Shown here: in pieces, positions 30,900-43,961 of the stretch
Numbering within the stretch: position 1 is the stretch's first letter
Layout of the letters: each line of letters starts with the position of its first letter
Assembly: GCA_029856155.1 (NCBI GenBank)
Contig: JAHQWL010000025.1
Coordinates: 1-54,079, forward strand
Length of the DNA stretch: 54,079 nucleotides
Origin: Promethearchaeia archaeon
Lineage (GTDB): Archaea; Asgardarchaeota; Lokiarchaeia; Sigyniarchaeales; SOKP01
Reading direction: 5' to 3'
Translations under genes and position numbers: made by a program
The notes under the pieces: generated by a model
Seen by the model: only the letters and a program-made list of their open reading frames with translations
What the model was told of the DNA's origin: nothing
Database searches by the model: none

Positions 30900-31232
30900 A
30901 TGAGTTTTGATGAATTTGATGAAGATTTAGGTGGAAATGAACCTGTAAAATCTAAAACTCCTGCAAGTAAAACCCCTTCTGCAGGAAAAAAATTAACACT
31001 ATATTTTATGTCGACCATAGGCCCTGGTGAAAAGAAAGAAAAATTAACTGTGAATGACAGTAATCACGTAAATGATATTAAGCATACATTAGGAAATTTA
31101 TACGGACTTGATCCTAACGATTTTCATTTATCCTCTGGTGGAGTTACTATGGATGAGAATAGTTCATTAAGAGACTATGATGTTAATAATGGTGATGATA
31201 TTCTTTTAATCCCCGCAAGTACTGCAGGGTAG
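30900..31232 (+). CDS. Ubiquitin-fold protein with acidic N-terminal extension, ending in ...STAG
   Basis: 'LTV..SNHVNDIK..LG..YGLDP.DFHL..GG..MDE..SLRDYDV..GD.ILLI' beta-grasp ubiquitin pattern; terminal Gly. Confidence 0.85.
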   Translation: MSFDEFDEDLGGNEPVKSKTPASKTPSAGKKLTLYFMSTIGPGEKKEKLTVNDSNHVNDIKHTLGNLYGLDPNDFHLSSGGVTMDENSSLRDYDVNNGDDILLIPASTAG

Positions 31233-36445: not shown

Positions 36446-36627
36446 TACACACTGATTCTTCATCTTTTTTAAAGTACACACTTAAAAAAAATATGATAGA
36501 TTATGATTAGAGCGCTTTTAATCACAATATTCACATTTTTTCATTATGCAGTACACACTTTTGATCCACAACATTTAAATATGATAGTACACACTTTATG
36601 ATCAGAGAATAAAAAATTATACACACT
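36446..36627 (+). repeat. Five direct repeats of TACACACT (consensus AGTACACACTT); probable operator or centromere-like array
   Basis: Copies at 36446, 36475, 36552, 36588 and 36620 (spacings 29, 77, 36, 32), all in the same orientation. Confidence 0.8.
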
Positions 36628-36672
36628 CAAAAAAAATATTAAAAAAAAATAAAAAAATGGTGGAAAAAAAAA

Positions 36673-36756
36673 ATGGAAAATAGTTATGAATCTTATAAGA
36701 ACGTTAAGGCCCATTTTGACGCGAAAAGAGCGGATATTGGTAAAATGTATTTCTAA
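36673..36756 (+). CDS. 27-aa micropeptide (not in the ORF track)
   Basis: MENSYESYKNVKAHFDAKRADIGKMYF; SD-like GGTGG upstream; T-rich tract downstream. Confidence 0.5.
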   Translation: MENSYESYKNVKAHFDAKRADIGKMYF

Positions 36757-36853
36757 ATACAATTTTTTTTATTTTTTTATCACAATAATCAAAAAAATTA
36801 AATTATTATAAACTTAAGATTTGGAAAAGAAGAAATAATTGGAGGTTAAAAAA

Positions 36854-36952
36854 ATGAATAAAACAGAAAGTAAAGAAAAAGGATATATAAATATTAAAGC
36901 CATAAAAGCCAAAATAAACACGAAATCAGGGTATTTTAGACTATTATTTTAA
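36854..36952 (+). CDS. 32-aa micropeptide (not in the ORF track)
   Basis: MNKTESKEKGYINIKAIKAKINTKSGYFRLLF; strong SD GGAGGT 7 nt upstream; ends 11 nt before the bactofilin start. Confidence 0.55.
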   Translation: MNKTESKEKGYINIKAIKAKINTKSGYFRLLF

Positions 36953-36963
36953 ATAATAAGGAG

Positions 36964-37659
36964 GTGGGTAAAAATAATATGAAAATTTCTGGATCAGGAA
37001 CACTTTCCGAGGGAAAAATAAATGATGAGATAAGGATTTCAGGTTCCGCTAAAATAAAGGGAAATTTTGAATGTAATGGGTTTGATTCATCTGGTTCTAT
37101 GAGGGGCGCAGGGAATTTGACAGTTCATGGTGATATCGCAAATTCTGGGTCATTTAGACTTATAGGAAACCTTTATGGAGATGGCAATCTCAAATCGTCT
37201 GGCTCAATGTCAGTTGACGGGGAAGTGTTAATTAAGGGAAAACTTCATAGTTCAGGTTCATTTAGAGCAGGAATGAAGGTTGAAGCTATTGATGGTTTTA
37301 AAAGTTCAGGCTCAGCAAGAGTTCAAGGTGACCTTTTAACTCTAGAAAGTGTAATTATTTCAGGTTCAAGCACAATTTATGGAAATGTTAGTGGAACTGA
37401 TGTGATTATTGGTCGTCGAGGGTTTGGTATCAATATATATAAACATTCTAATAAAGTATCTGGTACCATATTAGCAAGAAATAATATTGAGCTTATGAAA
37501 CTTCTTGTTGATGGGGACGTTAAAGGTCGAGATGTGATAATAGGTAGAAATACAGAGGTTTTGGGAACAGTATACTATGTTGATAGTATTGACATTCATG
37601 ATAAAACCATTTTAGTGAATAAACCAGTTCAAATTAAGGAAGAGGATTTGCATTATTAG
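36964..37659 (+). CDS. Bactofilin / polymer-forming cytoskeletal beta-helix protein (YhbE/YhbF-like)
   Basis: Repeated 'ISGS..I.G', 'SSGS...G.L' beta-helix rungs; C-terminal 'V.GRDVIIG.NT.V...VYY.DSI.IH'. Confidence 0.85.
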   Translation: MGKNNMKISGSGTLSEGKINDEIRISGSAKIKGNFECNGFDSSGSMRGAGNLTVHGDIANSGSFRLIGNLYGDGNLKSSGSMSVDGEVLIKGKLHSSGSFRAGMKVEAIDGFKSSGSARVQGDLLTLESVIISGSSTIYGNVSGTDVIIGRRGFGINIYKHSNKVSGTILARNNIELMKLLVDGDVKGRDVIIGRNTEVLGTVYYVDSIDIHDKTILVNKPVQIKEEDLHY

Positions 37660-37700
37660 AAATTAATAAAAATTAAGCATTAAAAAAAGAAGGAATCAAA

Positions 37701-38624
37701 ATGTCGAATGAAGAAAAATGGAATGAAAAAGAAGAAAGAGAAGAAGAGAGGAGTAAGGTTAGATGGGAGTTAAATGATCTTCGAGATGAGCTTATGTTTG
37801 AGTTAGACGATTTACATGATGATTTAAAGGATGTAATTGACGATTTAAAAGATGAAGCAGAGGATATTAAAGATGATTTAAGGGATGAACTGGAAGATCT
37901 TATGGAAGAACGAGAATCCTTACTTGATGAAGTCGGTAATATAAAAGGAGATTTAGAATATTACGGAGATGATGCAAGAGAGCAAATTGATCATGCAAAA
38001 GAGAAGCTTGAACGATTAAAAGAGAAAATTGAAAAACATGAAGCGAAATTTTCCGAAAAAGTTAGAAAAAAAGTGGAAAAAGCAAAAAAGAAAGCAGCAA
38101 GGATAAATATTTCTGTTGATCCTGATATGAGTGAAGAATGGAGAGGTTGGGCAGAAGGATTAGGTGCTTCAGTATCAGAGTTGGTTCGAAAGTCAATGAA
38201 ATTTGTAAAAAATAATATTGGTGATATCGGAAAATTAGAAAGGTTAGGTAGCAAATTGGAGCTAATGGGAGAAGATATAGAAAAAGCAGTAAAAAATTCT
38301 GGTATACAGGAAATTGGGGAAGAACTTGAAAAAAAGTTTGGAAAAAAGAAAGGTAAACCAAAAATGAGGATGGCAATTAATCTGGAACCTGATATTAAAG
38401 AAAGGATTAAAAAGAGGGTTATTGGATTAGTCAAACTCCACAAAAGTTTACCCCTCGATAAATTTGCTCAAGCATTAGATAAATCAAAGCAAGATGCTGA
38501 GAATATAGTTTATGAGATGGTAGCGGATGGTATTGAGGGTACTTTAGAGGAAGGTGTATTCAAATTCACGAGCACATCAGAAGAAGTTATTTCAAAACTG
38601 AGTGAATTAATTGATAAAATATAA
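37701..38624 (+). CDS. Acidic coiled-coil + ribbon-helix-helix + PCI/winged-helix-like protein
   Basis: D/E/L heptads over about 130 aa; RHH 'RINISVDPDMSEEWRGWAEGLGASVSELVRKSM'; C-terminal 'SLPLDKFAQALDKSKQDAENIVYEMVADGIEGTLE'. Confidence 0.75.
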   Translation: MSNEEKWNEKEEREEERSKVRWELNDLRDELMFELDDLHDDLKDVIDDLKDEAEDIKDDLRDELEDLMEERESLLDEVGNIKGDLEYYGDDAREQIDHAKEKLERLKEKIEKHEAKFSEKVRKKVEKAKKKAARINISVDPDMSEEWRGWAEGLGASVSELVRKSMKFVKNNIGDIGKLERLGSKLELMGEDIEKAVKNSGIQEIGEELEKKFGKKKGKPKMRMAINLEPDIKERIKKRVIGLVKLHKSLPLDKFAQALDKSKQDAENIVYEMVADGIEGTLEEGVFKFTSTSEEVISKLSELIDKI

Positions 38625-38668
38625 AAAAAGAGCAAATACTAAAATAATTAGGAAATTAGGGGATATTT

Positions 38669-39931
38669 ATGGCAGAATTTGCAGACGGGCACACGTTTAG
38701 GAGTTATATGTTTTTTTGGTCAGGACAGTTATTTTCATTGTTGGGGTCATTAGTGGTTTTTTTTGTAATATTTGTATGGATTACAGACGTGACTGGAAGT
38801 GCATCAATGTTAGCGTTAGGCAATTTTATCTTTTTGATTCCTATGTTAATTATTACTCCTTTTGCGGGAGTTATATCAGATCGTCATAGTCGAAAGACTA
38901 TTATTTTAATTGTAGATTCATTACAAGCATTTTTTACATTTATTTTAACTTTGATTTTTATATTCAACGCTGCTGAAGTATGGATTGTGCTTATTTTTAT
39001 AGGTATAAGGAGTGTATTTCAATCATTTCATTCACCAGTAGTAGGGGCAATAATGCCTTCTATGGTACCAAAAGATAAGTTAGGTAGAATAAATGGTATT
39101 AATTATTTTTTTACAGGACTTATTCAATTAATAGGACCTGCAGTTGGAGCAACATTATTATTCTTTTTCCCAATACAGATAGTCTTATGGGTCGATGTAA
39201 TTACCTACTTTATTGCCCTCTTCCCACTGTTACTAATTAAAATTCCTAGTGTTCATATTAATTTAGAGGGAGATGAGAGGAACTCGTTTTTCAGAGATAT
39301 GAAGGAAGGATTTGCAATATTAAAATCTATACCAGGACTCTTAAAAATTATGTTAACTGCGATGCTATTAAATATGTTACTTCAACCATTGATTGTTCTG
39401 ATGCCATATTTTATAAAGATTATACACAGTGGAAGTAATTTTACTTTAGCTATATTAGAGATGATTTTACAAGGTGGTATGATTGTAGGAGCAGTAATTC
39501 CTTCAATTAAAAAAAAATGGAATAATTCAATTAGAACCATGTTTATTGGAATTGTGATTATAAATATTGGGTATTTAATGTATGCGATTGCTCCAATTGG
39601 ATTTTATCCCGTGATAGCTTCAGGAGCTTTTGTTGTGGGTTTCATTCTACCAATTGTAAATACAATAGTAATAACAGTTGTACAAAAAACAATCCCCCAG
39701 AATAAAATGGGGAGAGTTTTTTCAATTCTTAATACGCTTTCTATGGTTGCTTCGCCTATAGGAGCAATTTTCTCAGGACCATTAAGTGAAATCTTTGGAG
39801 TGTCTTGGTTGTACTTTTATTGTGCAATGTTAGGAATAATGGTTTCACTCTCAGCCTATTTGTTCACTAATCTTCGACATATAGATTATGATAAAGAAAT
39901 AAATGGTAATAATAAAAACAAAAACGATTGA
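38669..39931 (+). CDS. MFS exporter, DHA3/MefA-like, paralogue 1
   Basis: 'FWSGQLFSLLGS', 'AGVISDRHSRK', 'MVPKDKLGRING', 'MGRVFS'. Confidence 0.93.
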   Translation: MAEFADGHTFRSYMFFWSGQLFSLLGSLVVFFVIFVWITDVTGSASMLALGNFIFLIPMLIITPFAGVISDRHSRKTIILIVDSLQAFFTFILTLIFIFNAAEVWIVLIFIGIRSVFQSFHSPVVGAIMPSMVPKDKLGRINGINYFFTGLIQLIGPAVGATLLFFFPIQIVLWVDVITYFIALFPLLLIKIPSVHINLEGDERNSFFRDMKEGFAILKSIPGLLKIMLTAMLLNMLLQPLIVLMPYFIKIIHSGSNFTLAILEMILQGGMIVGAVIPSIKKKWNNSIRTMFIGIVIINIGYLMYAIAPIGFYPVIASGAFVVGFILPIVNTIVITVVQKTIPQNKMGRVFSILNTLSMVASPIGAIFSGPLSEIFGVSWLYFYCAMLGIMVSLSAYLFTNLRHIDYDKEINGNNKNKND

Positions 39932-39977
39932 ATTAATAAAAATTAAAAAAAAAAATTAGGAAATTAGGAGATAGAAA

Positions 39978-41243
39978 ATGGAAATTATACCTACACAAAA
40001 AACATTCAGAAGTTATCTTTTTTTCTGGTCAGGACAATTGTTTTCACTGTTAGGATCTATGATAGTTCATTTTATACTGATCTGGTGGATACAATTAGAA
40101 ACAGGAAGCCCATTATTTCTCTCATTAGGGCAAACATTTTATATGGTACCTATGTTAATATTCATGCCTATTGCTGGAGTGTTTTCAGATAAGTTAAACC
40201 GAAAAAATCTTATTCTTACTGTGGATTCTTTACAAGCGTTTACTACATTTATTCTTATAATGTTCTTCATATTCGATATTGTAAATATATGGATAATCTT
40301 TCTTTTTATCGGTTTACGGAGTATTTTTCAAGCTTTTCATCAACCAACTGTAGCTGCGATTATTCCAACAATGGTTCCAAGAGAAAAATTAGGAAGAATA
40401 AATGGAATTAATTATTTATTTATAGGTCTAATTCAACTCCTTGGACCAGGGTTCGGTGCGCTATTAATGCAATTTTTTACTCTTAGAGATATTTTATGGA
40501 TAGATATAATTACATTTTTCATTGCCTTTATCCCTTTAATTATAATTAGTATTCCTATAGTAAGAGACAAATCTGAGGTAAAGCAGAAAAATGGGTTCAT
40601 CAAAGACTTTAAAGTAGGATTCATTGTTTATAAATCAATTCCAGGGTTGATAATTCTTTTATTTATGGGAATGTTAGTGAACTTTTTTGTTCAGCCTTTA
40701 GGCACTCTATTACCCTATTTTATTAATACTATTCATGGTGGATTAGAATTTGAGTATGCTTTAGTTCTAATATTTTTGCAGGCAGGTGTAATGGGAGGAG
40801 CAATAATAGCTTCTGTTAAAAAGGAGTGGAAACATAAAATTAATGTAATGTTTATCGGAATTGGGATTATAGGTATTGGATATGCATTTTTAGCAACTGT
40901 TCCTACTGGATTTTTTATTTTAATAGGATTTTTGCTATTAATTGTGGGAATCACTTTACCAATAATAAATACTATATTTCAAATTATTTTACAAACAAAT
41001 GTACCCTCAGATAAACTAGGAAGGGTAACATCTATTGATAGTACTCTATCGACGATAATATCGCCTTTGGGGACAATTATCGCAGGACCAATTACTATTC
41101 TAATTGGGATACACAGCTTATTTCTCTTTTGTGCTATTGCAGTTTTAGTAGTTACACTTATAACATACTTTTTCACTGGAATCCGGCATGTCGATTATAA
41201 TGGAAAAATTTCAATAGAATTGGAATCTAATGAATTAAAATAA
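39978..41243 (+). CDS. MFS exporter, DHA3/MefA-like, paralogue 2
   Basis: Same motifs as paralogue 1. Confidence 0.93.
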   Translation: MEIIPTQKTFRSYLFFWSGQLFSLLGSMIVHFILIWWIQLETGSPLFLSLGQTFYMVPMLIFMPIAGVFSDKLNRKNLILTVDSLQAFTTFILIMFFIFDIVNIWIIFLFIGLRSIFQAFHQPTVAAIIPTMVPREKLGRINGINYLFIGLIQLLGPGFGALLMQFFTLRDILWIDIITFFIAFIPLIIISIPIVRDKSEVKQKNGFIKDFKVGFIVYKSIPGLIILLFMGMLVNFFVQPLGTLLPYFINTIHGGLEFEYALVLIFLQAGVMGGAIIASVKKEWKHKINVMFIGIGIIGIGYAFLATVPTGFFILIGFLLLIVGITLPIINTIFQIILQTNVPSDKLGRVTSIDSTLSTIISPLGTIIAGPITILIGIHSLFLFCAIAVLVVTLITYFFTGIRHVDYNGKISIELESNELK

Positions 41244-41317
41244 CAAATTAAAAAAATATATTTTAAATAAAAATAGAAAAAAGTATTAAAAAAAATTAGG
41301 AAAATAGGGGATATTAA

Positions 41318-42604
41318 ATGGAAGAAATTGCAAATAAAGAAACATTTAAGAGTTATTTATTTTTTTGGTCTGGACAATTATTTTCTTTACTTGGTTCGAT
41401 GGTTGTATTCTTCGTAATAACGTTTTGGATTGCGGATGTTTACAATGATCCAATGATAAGCGCTTTTGCATCATTTTTATATGTACTAATGATGACACTT
41501 TGTATGCCTTTAGCGGGTGTTTTTGCAGATAGGATTAATCGGAAAATGTTGATTTTAACGGTAGATTCGTTACAGGCATTAGTTACATTTGCATTGATAC
41601 TTTTCTTTCAACTCGGGATAACAAATCTTTGGATTATATATTTTTTTATTAGTTTACGTAGTGTTTTTCAAGCGTTCCACTTGCCTACTGTCAATGCGAT
41701 CATTCCAACGATGGTTCCTAAAGATAAACTATCAAGAATTAATGGAGTTAACTTTTTATTTACAGGTGTAGTTCAACTTTTATCACCATTTCTAGGGGCA
41801 ATATTATTAGTATTTCTCTCAGTGTATATGGTTTTATGGATAGACATTATAACATTCTTTATTGCTTTAATACCATTATTGCTGATAACTATACCTTCAG
41901 TTAAACTAATTAATCATAGTGAAAACAATGTTGAAAAGAGTTCCTTTATAAAAGATTTTAGGTTAGGCTTCAAAACATTAAAAATAATTCCGGGATTAGT
42001 TATAATGGTAATCTTATCGATGCTACTTAATTTCTTAATCCAACCTATGAATGCCCTTATGCCTTTATTTATCCTAGATGTTCATGGAGGGGAAGCAGGA
42101 CATTTAGCACTAGCTGAAATGATTTTTACAGGGGGAATGATTACAGGAGCTCTAGTGACCTCGATTAAGAAGAGTTGGGAAAATAAACTTCGAGTGATTT
42201 TTATTAGTATCGTAATGGCGTTGATTGGATACATGATATTTGCTTTAGCACCTATAGGAAACTATTACATTATGGGTTTGGGTGGAGTCATTCTGGGATT
42301 CAATTTACCAATAATTAATTCTCTTTATCAAACGTTTTTACAAACTACAGTACCCTCTGATAAATTGGGTAGAGTAAGCTCAATTGACCAAGCATTATCT
42401 TCAGCAATCTCACCAATAGGATCATTAGCGGCGGGGCCATTAGCATTAATATTAGGTATTCCTACATTGTTTTTCTACTGTGGGTTCCTTGGTGTGATAG
42501 TTACAGTTGGTTTTTGGGGCTTTACAGGTATTAGAAAAATCGATATTGATAGTAAAGGCGCACTCGAAGAAATTCATGGAAAAATAGAAAATATTTCAAT
42601 CTAA
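41318..42604 (+). CDS. MFS exporter, DHA3/MefA-like, paralogue 3
   Basis: Same motifs as paralogue 1. Confidence 0.93.
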   Translation: MEEIANKETFKSYLFFWSGQLFSLLGSMVVFFVITFWIADVYNDPMISAFASFLYVLMMTLCMPLAGVFADRINRKMLILTVDSLQALVTFALILFFQLGITNLWIIYFFISLRSVFQAFHLPTVNAIIPTMVPKDKLSRINGVNFLFTGVVQLLSPFLGAILLVFLSVYMVLWIDIITFFIALIPLLLITIPSVKLINHSENNVEKSSFIKDFRLGFKTLKIIPGLVIMVILSMLLNFLIQPMNALMPLFILDVHGGEAGHLALAEMIFTGGMITGALVTSIKKSWENKLRVIFISIVMALIGYMIFALAPIGNYYIMGLGGVILGFNLPIINSLYQTFLQTTVPSDKLGRVSSIDQALSSAISPIGSLAAGPLALILGIPTLFFYCGFLGVIVTVGFWGFTGIRKIDIDSKGALEEIHGKIENISI

Positions 42605-42641
42605 TATATTTCTTTCTTTTTTTTAAAGATTAATTATAGAT

Positions 42642-43961
42642 GTGGTGAAGAAAATAACTGAAGAATTAGCAAATAACCAAACTTTTAAGAGTTATATCGT
42701 TTTTTGGATGGGACAGTTATTTTCAGTGTTAGGATCATCAGTTTCGCATTTTGCAATTATTTGGTGGATAACTGACACAACAGGGAGTACAATGCTTCTA
42801 TCATTAGCAAGTTTCCTTTATGTCTTACCGATGACAATAGTTGTCGCTTTATCTGGCGTAGTAATTGATAAATGGAATCGAAAGACGATTATTGTGGTAG
42901 TAGATTCTCTCCAAGCATATGTAATGCTTCTGATAATAATAATCTTCAATCTTGGAGTGGCAAATCCAATTTTAATAGTTGCAATAATGAGTTTATTTGG
43001 AATATTTCAAGGGTTTCATATCCCTACAGTAACTGCTATTGTTCCTACGATGGTACCAAGGGAAAAATTAAGTAGAATGAATGGGGTTAATTTTTTCTTT
43101 AGAAGTTTTACTCAAATCATAGGTCCAGTAATAGGTGCTATGTTATTCTCATTTATCCCACTTAAAATCATACTTTGGATTGATCCACTTACATTTATCA
43201 TTGCGTTTATTCCTTTGTTAGTAATTAAAATCCCTAAAATCAAGAGGGAAGTTTCAGCTGTTAAAAAGAATTCATTTCTAGAAGATTTCAAAATTGGATT
43301 CCGTACGTTGAAATCAATTCCAATTGTTTTTATGATGCTTCTAATATCAATGTTCATTAACTTTCTATTTGTTCCACTTAATATCTTAATGCCGTATTTC
43401 ATCAGATATAACCATTCAGGCGATCCTTCAAATTTAGCATTTGTTATAGCTTTTATGAATGGGGGTATGCTTTTAGGTGCATTGTTAACTTCAATAAAGA
43501 AAGAGTGGAAACATGCTCTTTTCATATACTTTGGACTTGAATTCATCTTAATGATGATTGGTGGTATATTTGCCATAACTCCATATCGATTATTTCTAAT
43601 GATGGGTATTGTAGTTGGTATCGCTGGCATAACTATTCCTATCCTTAATACAATTTATTTAACAATTATGCAACTAAAAGTTCCAACAGATAAAATGGGA
43701 AGGCTATCTTCTCTTGATTGGGCGATTTCATCAGCTATAACTCCAATTGCAACTATAATAACAGGGCCTTTATCTGAGATGATCGGAGTGACCAATTTAT
43801 TTCTTTCTTGTTCTATTATTGGAATGATAATAACTCTTATTTTATGGTGGGTTGCGCACATTCGAGTGAATAAAAATAATAATAGGAAAGAACTTGAAGA
43901 AATTGAAATGAGTATTGAAAGGGCATCAAAAGAAAAATGGAAAAAAAGTAAAAAATGGTAA
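42642..43961 (+). CDS. MFS exporter, DHA3/MefA-like, paralogue 4
   Basis: Same motifs as paralogue 1; GTG start. Confidence 0.93.
   Translation: MVKKITEELANNQTFKSYIVFWMGQLFSVLGSSVSHFAIIWWITDTTGSTMLLSLASFLYVLPMTIVVALSGVVIDKWNRKTIIVVVDSLQAYVMLLIIIIFNLGVANPILIVAIMSLFGIFQGFHIPTVTAIVPTMVPREKLSRMNGVNFFFRSFTQIIGPVIGAMLFSFIPLKIILWIDPLTFIIAFIPLLVIKIPKIKREVSAVKKNSFLEDFKIGFRTLKSIPIVFMMLLISMFINFLFVPLNILMPYFIRYNHSGDPSNLAFVIAFMNGGMLLGALLTSIKKEWKHALFIYFGLEFILMMIGGIFAITPYRLFLMMGIVVGIAGITIPILNTIYLTIMQLKVPTDKMGRLSSLDWAISSAITPIATIITGPLSEMIGVTNLFLSCSIIGMIITLILWWVAHIRVNKNNNRKELEEIEMSIERASKEKWKKSKKW

Follow-up and report, generated by a model that had tools for sequence, protein, structure and literature searches.

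A conserved Lokiarchaeial module of boxed micropeptide promoters, a candidate ribbon-helix-helix regulator and a long bactofilin

In Bacillus subtilis, the DNA-binding protein BacR (YhbD, DUF4004) is encoded in one operon with the long bactofilins BacE and BacF (PMC13649987). BacR binds BacE/BacF, which reduces its DNA binding and holds it at the membrane, and upon depletion of BacE/BacF it relocates to the nucleoid (PMC13649987). BacEF-like long bactofilins form a '13-winding' cluster, archaeal members included (PMC11459167). Here we present a locus from a Promethearchaeia archaeon (Lokiarchaeia, Sigyniarchaeales) that looks, by analogy, like an archaeal relative, in function, of this regulator-plus-filament switch. 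It occupies positions 36,446 to 43,961 of contig JAHQWL010000025.1 (assembly GCA_029856155.1), of which the whole stretch from position 1 to 54,079 was analysed and is called the window below. The locus comprises an array of TACACA-type boxes, two micropeptide genes, a bactofilin gene, the gene of a candidate regulator with a ribbon-helix-helix (RHH) segment and a winged helix (RHH-wH protein), and four transporter genes of the major facilitator superfamily (MFS). The finding is real and conserved, with parts of known kinds in an undescribed arrangement, from which we infer the functional steps. An initial annotation, made from the letters of the window, did not recognise the combination as a described system; this holds for archaea, the BacR-BacE/F system, published in 2026 (PMC13649987), being a functional analogue.

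The likeness to BacR-BacE/F lies in the gene of a dedicated DNA-binding protein (a candidate one here) alongside that of a long bactofilin. The regulators themselves differ: BacR has an N-terminal helix-turn-helix and is without the RHH segment, the PCI-like winged helix and the long acidic coiled coil of the archaeal protein, and Pfam scans up to an E-value of 10 gave no match to DUF4004 (PF13171), which places the latter outside the BacR family. BacR also is without a defined operator, whereas the archaeal module has sharply defined boxes and, as its putative targets, micropeptide promoters of archaeal type. With the RHH repressors CopG, Arc, MetJ and omega of pSM19035 the module shares a strand whose polar residues alternate (R-I-N-I-S), helix A, G-x-S turn and helix B, as well as short boxes, direct or inverted, around a promoter. 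Unlike these repressors, the candidate regulator is 307 amino acids (aa) long, its RHH segment being preceded by an acidic coiled coil of 130 residues and followed by a PCI-like winged helix, and its presumed sites are spaced 32-77 nucleotides (nt) apart, whereas those of RHH repressors abut. A further likeness is to PadC-BacNOP-ParABS of Myxococcus xanthus, where an adaptor connects a DNA-binding system to a bactofilin scaffold; the module in the window differs in having no ParA/ParB genes and in that its DNA sites are promoter elements.

The reading that we prefer, with a probability of about 0.5, is that of an order-wide Lokiarchaeial module in which the regulator would act on boxes at the peptide promoters, the bactofilin would be its partner and the MFS transporters would be outputs. 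Eukaryotes have their closest cultured relatives in the Loki-type Asgard archaea, of whose gene regulation and use of non-actin filaments, to our knowledge, almost nothing is known. The module supplies a sharply defined candidate operator motif, a candidate cognate factor, an overlooked family of peptide genes and a putative bactofilin partner. About half of the genomes sampled from the order carry it, among them closed genomes such as G032, G038 and G055, possibly of cultured strains, which makes its predictions directly testable.

Five exact copies of TACACACT were found in the window, all on the + strand (at 36446, 36475, 36552, 36588 and 36620), against an expected count of 0.62; five copies were reached in none of 100 shuffles, and no further copy lies in the window outside 36446-36627. 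Genome-wide (4.1 Mb) there are 63 copies, the motif being rarer than 8-mers of equal composition, and only two clusters occur, namely the array in the window and three copies at C83:9347-9481. Counts, shuffles and gene map thus bear out the five direct repeats ahead of co-oriented genes that the initial annotation had noticed. It had placed the repeats ahead of that run of genes as a whole; they do lie upstream of it but belong to the promoter of the first micropeptide gene (open reading frame (ORF) A), behind which a T8-A-T7 terminator follows.

The predicted promoter core (36566..36581, + strand) consists of CCACAACA, which resembles a transcription factor B recognition element (BRE), and the TATA box TTTAAATA (36574-36581); its promoter role is taken from the established archaeal consensus, and the transcription start is predicted to lie roughly 25 nt behind TTTAAATA. 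Box 1 (36552..36559, + strand) lies just 5' of BRE and TATA box, a position kept in most loci of the genus. Box 2 (36588..36595, + strand) follows the TATA box after 6 nt and precedes the predicted start, and box 3 (36620..36627, + strand) falls into the predicted 5' leader. The two distal boxes on the same strand (36446..36482, at 36446 and 36475) stand further upstream; behind the second, the promoter core reappears in degenerate form (AAATATGATAG...TTATGATTAGAG), and a comparison of spacings showed that relatives, too, have a distal box, 76-78 nt ahead of box 1. When the promoter regions of 25 related loci were aligned, the block ACAACATTTAAATA was conserved in nearly all of them, and the layout of box, ACAACATTTAAATA, box and leader box recurred genus-wide, among loci as well as families. 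The box after the TATA box is inverted (AGTGTGTA) in some relatives, and the promoter variant of family f2 has two boxes directly after the TATA box. Judged from these alignments, the TACACA(CT) boxes are elements of micropeptide promoters, placed on either side of the TATA box and the predicted start, and not a free-standing array. Archaeal repressors usually act over the interval between TATA box and start. No relevant literature on the box motif, or on Lokiarchaeial small proteins, was found.

The transcript of gene A is predicted to end at an oligo-T tract of the form usual for archaeal terminators, T8-A-T7 (36763..36778, + strand), T-tracts being present 3' of the peptide genes in all related loci. 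Directly behind it a comparison of loci revealed a conserved block, ATCACAATAATCAAAAA in the window (36779..36797, + strand) and TATCACGATAATCAAAAT in relatives, which may be the own promoter or a second operator of the downstream operon; one relative has five TATCA copies with a 9-nt period at the equivalent site (L019:2090-2140). The second box cluster of the genome (C83:9347-9620) has the layout seen at 36446-36778: three TACACACT boxes accompany a TATA box, and behind them come a paralogous peptide gene of 27 codons and T-tracts; no co-oriented gene follows within the next 1.5 kb. A TATA box with one box 5' of a RadA-like gene (C15:7225) was set aside as a probable chance occurrence, as it has a single box only.

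Micropeptide gene A (36673..36756, + strand) has 27 codons, a GGTGG ribosome-binding site at 36659-36663 and a product ending in Met-Tyr-Phe. Its length is exactly 27 codons in all ten homologues compared, among which the pairwise ratio of nonsynonymous to synonymous differences (pN/pS) is 0.36 in frame vs 1.12 and 1.43 out of frame. A second sequence type, found in the same slot in other species, gave 0.35 in frame vs 1.21 and 0.55. These frame-specific ratios mark ORF A as a coding gene under purifying selection. Micropeptide gene B (36854..36952, + strand), with 32 codons, a GGAGG ribosome-binding site and a product ending in Leu-Leu-Phe, shows a weaker coding signal (pN/pS 0.66 in frame vs 0.96 and 1.40), and a small ORF with a ribosome-binding site occupies its position genus-wide. 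The peptides differ by clade; nearly all have 22-39 residues, are basic and have an aromatic or hydrophobic end, and a Pfam search matched them to no family. All ten type-A peptides end in Met, Leu, Ile or Arg, then Tyr, then Tyr, Phe or Asn, with a hydrophobic first position in nine of them (36745-36753 in the window). This resembles the HbYX tail of proteasome activators, a likeness put forward as an idea only, because other peptide types in the same slot differ.

The candidate regulator (307 aa; 37701..38624, + strand) was delineated with profiles, a structural model and an alignment of orthologues. It comprises an acidic coiled coil (residues ~4-133), an RHH segment (~133-170), a helical linker and a PCI-like winged helix (~230-307). 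Its gene is single-copy in the genome by tblastn, and its database relatives are all hypothetical proteins from Lokiarchaeota/Promethearchaeota metagenomes. Among 19 orthologous sequences, RHH_1 was matched by 13 (best E-value 2.6e-6), RHH_5 by 11 and RHH_3 by two. The segment has the elements of the RHH signature, i.e., the strand RINISVD, helix A (MSEEWRGWAEGL), a G-A-S turn and helix B (VSELVRKSM), and R134, I135, N136, W147, A151, S157, S159 and R163 are invariant among the 19 sequences. CopG was its top match in the PDB, from end to end (residues 2-42 of 45), at an E-value of 0.24. The putative DNA-facing strand R-I-N-[IF]-[ST] is kept order-wide wherever the TACACA core is kept; when co-variation between strand and box was sought, both proved merely conserved, which is consistent with recognition of the box by the strand and does not discriminate. 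The initial annotation had described a coiled-coil RHH protein. The RHH assignment is carried by the orthologues (13 of 19 match RHH_1) and weak in the score of the window protein itself; the C-terminal PCI-like winged helix had been left unmentioned.

This winged helix is modelled confidently, with a predicted local distance difference test score (pLDDT) of about 85, and matches PCI (PF01399) with 29.8-30.6 bits vs a cut-off of 22, as do 18 of the 19 orthologues. The match covers only positions 17-67 of the 84 of the profile and thus the winged-helix subdomain only; the helical-repeat part of true PCI proteins is absent. Foldseek pointed to DDRGK1/UFBP1 and to the PCI winged helices of the COP9 signalosome (CSN) and the proteasome lid. 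The top Foldseek rows of the regulator model were DDRGK1/UFBP1 chains of UFL1 ligase complexes (8qfc_D, E-value 2e-3, 20-22% identity, 192 columns), followed by CSN and Rpn (proteasome lid) PCI subunits and winged helices of MarR type, with weak E-values throughout. Pfam gave no DDRGK match for the regulator, and the structural match to DDRGK1 may be a generic one of a long helix plus a winged helix. When the full-length regulator model was used for a fold search, coiled coils dominated the result (Z about 7), which was discarded as uninformative.

Of the 24 genomes sampled from the genus, 19 encode a member of the RHH-wH family; for the whole order the figures are 66 of 121 genomes, and 12 of 23 genera. 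Where the upstream sequence is long enough, the RHH gene, or its pair with bactofilin, nearly always has ahead of it a TATA box framed by TACACA-type boxes and then one to three peptide genes with their terminators, and boxes accompany the RHH gene in at least two families (f1, f2) and in other genera. Strict box pairs were found in 14 of 41 related genomes; a reversed control pattern was found in none of 40 genomes and twice in the remaining one. All extra box loci inspected in relatives precede a peptide gene, and there are two to three box-promoter loci per genome. The four genomes of the genus that are without the RHH gene (G015, G016, G021, G023) are also without box pairs, a co-absence that does not amount to a statistical test because the genomes are related. 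Genome G014 carries a natural deletion (L032, G014:C44, oriented ~880-1000) that joins the first three codons of peptide A to the body of the RHH protein. The remainder of peptide A has been lost together with peptide B, bactofilin and coiled coil, and a 191-aa RHH-wH protein is left directly behind the boxes.

Bactofilin adjoins the RHH gene in most loci of the genus, in genus g14 and in family f2 (g2, g9); the pair is found in either gene order, with a 4-nt gene overlap in G025 and G032. MFS genes, in one to five copies, stand 3' of the RHH gene in several genera of family f1, and not in family f2 or G055. On the comparison of these loci, the core that is constant order-wide consists of boxes, peptide gene(s) and RHH-wH protein, while bactofilin and MFS genes are frequent but dispensable additions. 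Conservation of the gene neighbourhood, which the initial annotation had named as a check on its proposals, hence applies to boxes, peptides and RHH protein and not to bactofilin and transporters, which vary. A gene of the nitroreductase family lies between peptide promoter and bactofilin in two relatives only (G003 and G008; L014:10159-10887 and L015:9996-10727); as this insertion is lineage-specific, a reading of the locus as one for a ribosomally synthesized and post-translationally modified peptide was dropped.

The bactofilin-type protein (226 aa; 36979..37659, + strand) belongs to the bactofilin family by its PF04519 score (35.5 bits vs a cut-off of 27.9). Homologues reach 37.7-50.2 bits, and every database homologue listed carries PF04519, the annotation being polymer-forming cytoskeletal protein. 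Its AlphaFold2 model (pLDDT 94.4) is all-beta, with a beta-helix of ~200 residues, and was superimposed on right-handed beta-helices with Z 16-17.6 and a root mean square deviation (rmsd) of 2.3-3.2 A over 200-217 residues, whereas left-handed hexapeptide folds were matched with an rmsd of about 12 A only. The model thus indicates a right-handed beta-helix, about twice the canonical six-winding domain, with a winding number of ~10-12 that is an estimate from ~18 residues per turn and not a count from coordinates. Together with the Pfam match this suggests a place near the BacEF-like long bactofilins, from which the protein differs in having no obvious N-terminal membrane-targeting peptide; its homologues in family f2 carry an additional block of repeats and, at the N-terminus, a poly-acidic tail. 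No solved bactofilin was among the structures listed in the fold search, and Foldseek gave no match at an E-value of 0.001 or less, the fold being established by the wider structural search; BacA (2n3d) matches the profile with an E-value of 0.012. The gene is single-copy by tblastn. A six-frame search of the genome with PF04519 gave no match although the gene is present, since several weak stretches share the score between them.

A second long-bactofilin paralogue, without an RHH partner, sits beside the rpS10 gene in many genomes of the genus (L039:3569-4327, L040:3275-4033) and was not found in this genome by tblastn; the paralogue lends no support to a general pairing of bactofilin and RHH protein. 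A weak SepF-like ORF (23.8 bits, below the cut-off) is convergent to the bactofilin gene in G025 (L030:2954-3253).

According to the preferred reading, the RHH-wH protein would bind the boxes and control the peptide promoters, most likely as a repressor because the boxes overlap the region of RNA polymerase recruitment. As the box-binding factor it is the best-supported candidate, on account of the geometry of the sites and their association with its gene. It may also control its own operon, via read-through of the terminator or via the conserved block behind it. The adjacent long bactofilin would be its protein partner, and the filament would hold the regulator off the DNA, giving a filament-to-transcription switch analogous to BacR-BacE/F. 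At the genus level the operon would have been extended by duplicated MFS genes of DHA3 type, in relatives also by M29 aminopeptidase genes, as co-expressed outputs. If the bactofilin does hold the regulator, the module would be an archaeal counterpart, independently evolved, of the BacR-type switch of Firmicutes, and the coupling of filament to transcription would be suggested as a general use of bactofilins. The first of two models in the initial annotation, an autoregulated export or resistance operon whose acidic coiled coil would sense cationic ligands, is supported in part: it gains from the operator geometry around the TATA box, from the boxes that travel with the RHH gene and from the G014 deletion. 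It needs to be amended in that the boxes act first of all, on this reading, on a micropeptide gene with a terminator of its own, and that the genome has a second promoter of this kind elsewhere.

Several points weigh against this reading. The regulator's own RHH_1 score in Pfam is 13.8 bits, below the cut-off of 20.5 (E-value 0.06), and its RHH segment has low confidence in the monomer model (pLDDT 38-47), as is expected for an obligate dimer modelled as a monomer. The winged helix rather than the RHH segment could be the reader of DNA, and the boxes could be bound by a factor encoded elsewhere. A strong terminator parts the box promoter from the operon, so that autoregulation is no more than a possibility. 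Bactofilin is missing beside the RHH gene in G010, G012, G014, G055 and genus g15, and it is therefore not essential to the core. Since BacR is not homologous to the archaeal regulator, the proposed switch is an analogy only.

The genes from 36673 to 43961 are all on the + strand, with gaps of 26-97 nt, and the last four are tandem MFS paralogues (38669-39931, 39978-41243, 41318-42604 and 42642-43961) with a pairwise identity of 39-54%. They match MFS_1/MFS_3, the MFS_1 scores of 102-135 bits (cut-off 33.4) making them general members of the superfamily. The DHA3 efflux pumps (Mef, EntS, Tet(V)) provided the best NCBIfam models for all four, with full-length alignments: TIGR00900 (DHA3) came first with 218-240 bits, below its cut-off of 319.6 and hence short of assignment to that subfamily, and Mef and EntS were next. 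With scores so far below the curated cut-offs, the substrate is not inferable from these models. No T-tract is found between the bactofilin, RHH and MFS1-3 genes, which makes their co-transcription plausible; a T8 run precedes MFS4. The spacers before MFS1-3 (38625-38668, 39932-39977 and 41244-41317) share AATTAGGAAA(T/A)TAGG(G/A)GATA, apparently the footprint of a tandem duplication that included the ribosome-binding site. Many relatives have one or two Peptidase_M29 aminopeptidase genes between the RHH and MFS genes or interleaved with the latter (L013:3952-5061, with equivalents in L014-L017, L019, L024-L026 and L053), and there are none in the window.

The order of these genes also fits a pheromone- or bacteriocin-type locus, in which highly transcribed precursors would be followed, through a leaky terminator, by smaller amounts of regulator, aminopeptidases and MFS exporters, and the peptides would act outside the cell. 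A precursor gene, a terminator and then regulator and transporter genes are the layout to be expected, orphan precursor loci bear this promoter too, in several genera of family f1 the RHH gene is immediately followed by an MFS gene, relatives have M29 peptidase genes among their MFS genes, and the peptide sequences diversify by clade within a constant regulatory frame. Nevertheless, we regard such a locus as unlikely. The peptides have neither leader/core organisation nor a core rich in Cys, Ser or Thr; an ABC or peptidase-domain exporter is absent; it is for small molecules, not for 3-kDa peptides, that DHA3 MFS proteins are known; and M29 enzymes are general aminopeptidases. Family f2 and G055, moreover, keep boxes, peptides and RHH gene without a nearby MFS gene.

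A more elaborate form of the regulator-bactofilin reading, Asgard-specific, would have the micropeptides themselves gate the switch, by binding the regulator or capping the filament and so setting its partition between filament and operator. The aromatic-tailed peptides would then bind the acidic coiled coil or the PCI-like winged helix and exert feedback on peptide synthesis. If true, this would make the regulator's long charged helix and PCI-like winged helix, by their DDRGK1 and CSN/lid likeness, a prokaryote-side relative of eukaryotic scaffold adaptors; we consider it rather improbable.

Somewhat lower still do we rate a coincidence of neighbours, whereby the boxes would be read by a factor encoded elsewhere and bactofilin, RHH protein and MFS transporters would have unrelated roles. 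Box binding by the RHH protein is something that we infer from the loci, and the gene content around the RHH gene is variable, both as a coincidence would have it; but boxes and RHH gene co-occur across families and genera while their surroundings change, and the deletion in G014 has retained exactly the boxes and the RHH-wH part. Very unlikely is a small regulatory RNA as the product of the box promoter, with the small ORFs untranslated. The predicted transcripts are indeed short (about 150 nt), terminated and A/T-rich, and the peptides are known from sequence alone. On the other hand, selection is frame-specific (pN/pS 0.35-0.36), all 10 homologues have exactly 27 codons, and conserved ribosome-binding sites stand at the right distance. 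Scans of the window with Rfam (gathering scores) and for tRNAs gave no match, a result that, for Rfam, says nothing either way about such an RNA.

The second model of the initial annotation, a DNA-to-filament tether of centromere-like boxes, RHH adaptor and bactofilin anchor with no ParA-type ATPase, has precedents in the RHH centromere binders ParG and omega and in the PadC-BacNOP anchoring of ParB in Myxococcus, as well as a translational coupling of bactofilin and RHH genes in G025 and G032, but it fits least of all and is disfavoured as highly improbable, because the sites are promoters at several loci (the boxes bracket the TATA boxes of peptide genes at two to three dispersed loci per genome) and bactofilin is dispensable (several lineages retain boxes and RHH gene without it). 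No ParA-type ATPase gene was found among the neighbours scanned or in related loci, so that the locus does not qualify as a partition system of type Ib/II with an RHH centromere binder.

The locus is flanked by genes for a malic enzyme, a small membrane protein, a zf-AN1 protein and a glycyl-radical enzyme. Further upstream, the window encodes a 110-aa ubiquitin-like protein (30900-31232) that matches Pfam ubiquitin and not Ufm1. It shows 96% identity between genomes, as against only 79% for the RHH proteins of those genomes. In at least five relatives (L014:11438-11770, L016, L017, L019, L025) the box promoter comes directly after its gene; in the window about 5 kb, including the malic enzyme gene, lie between the two.

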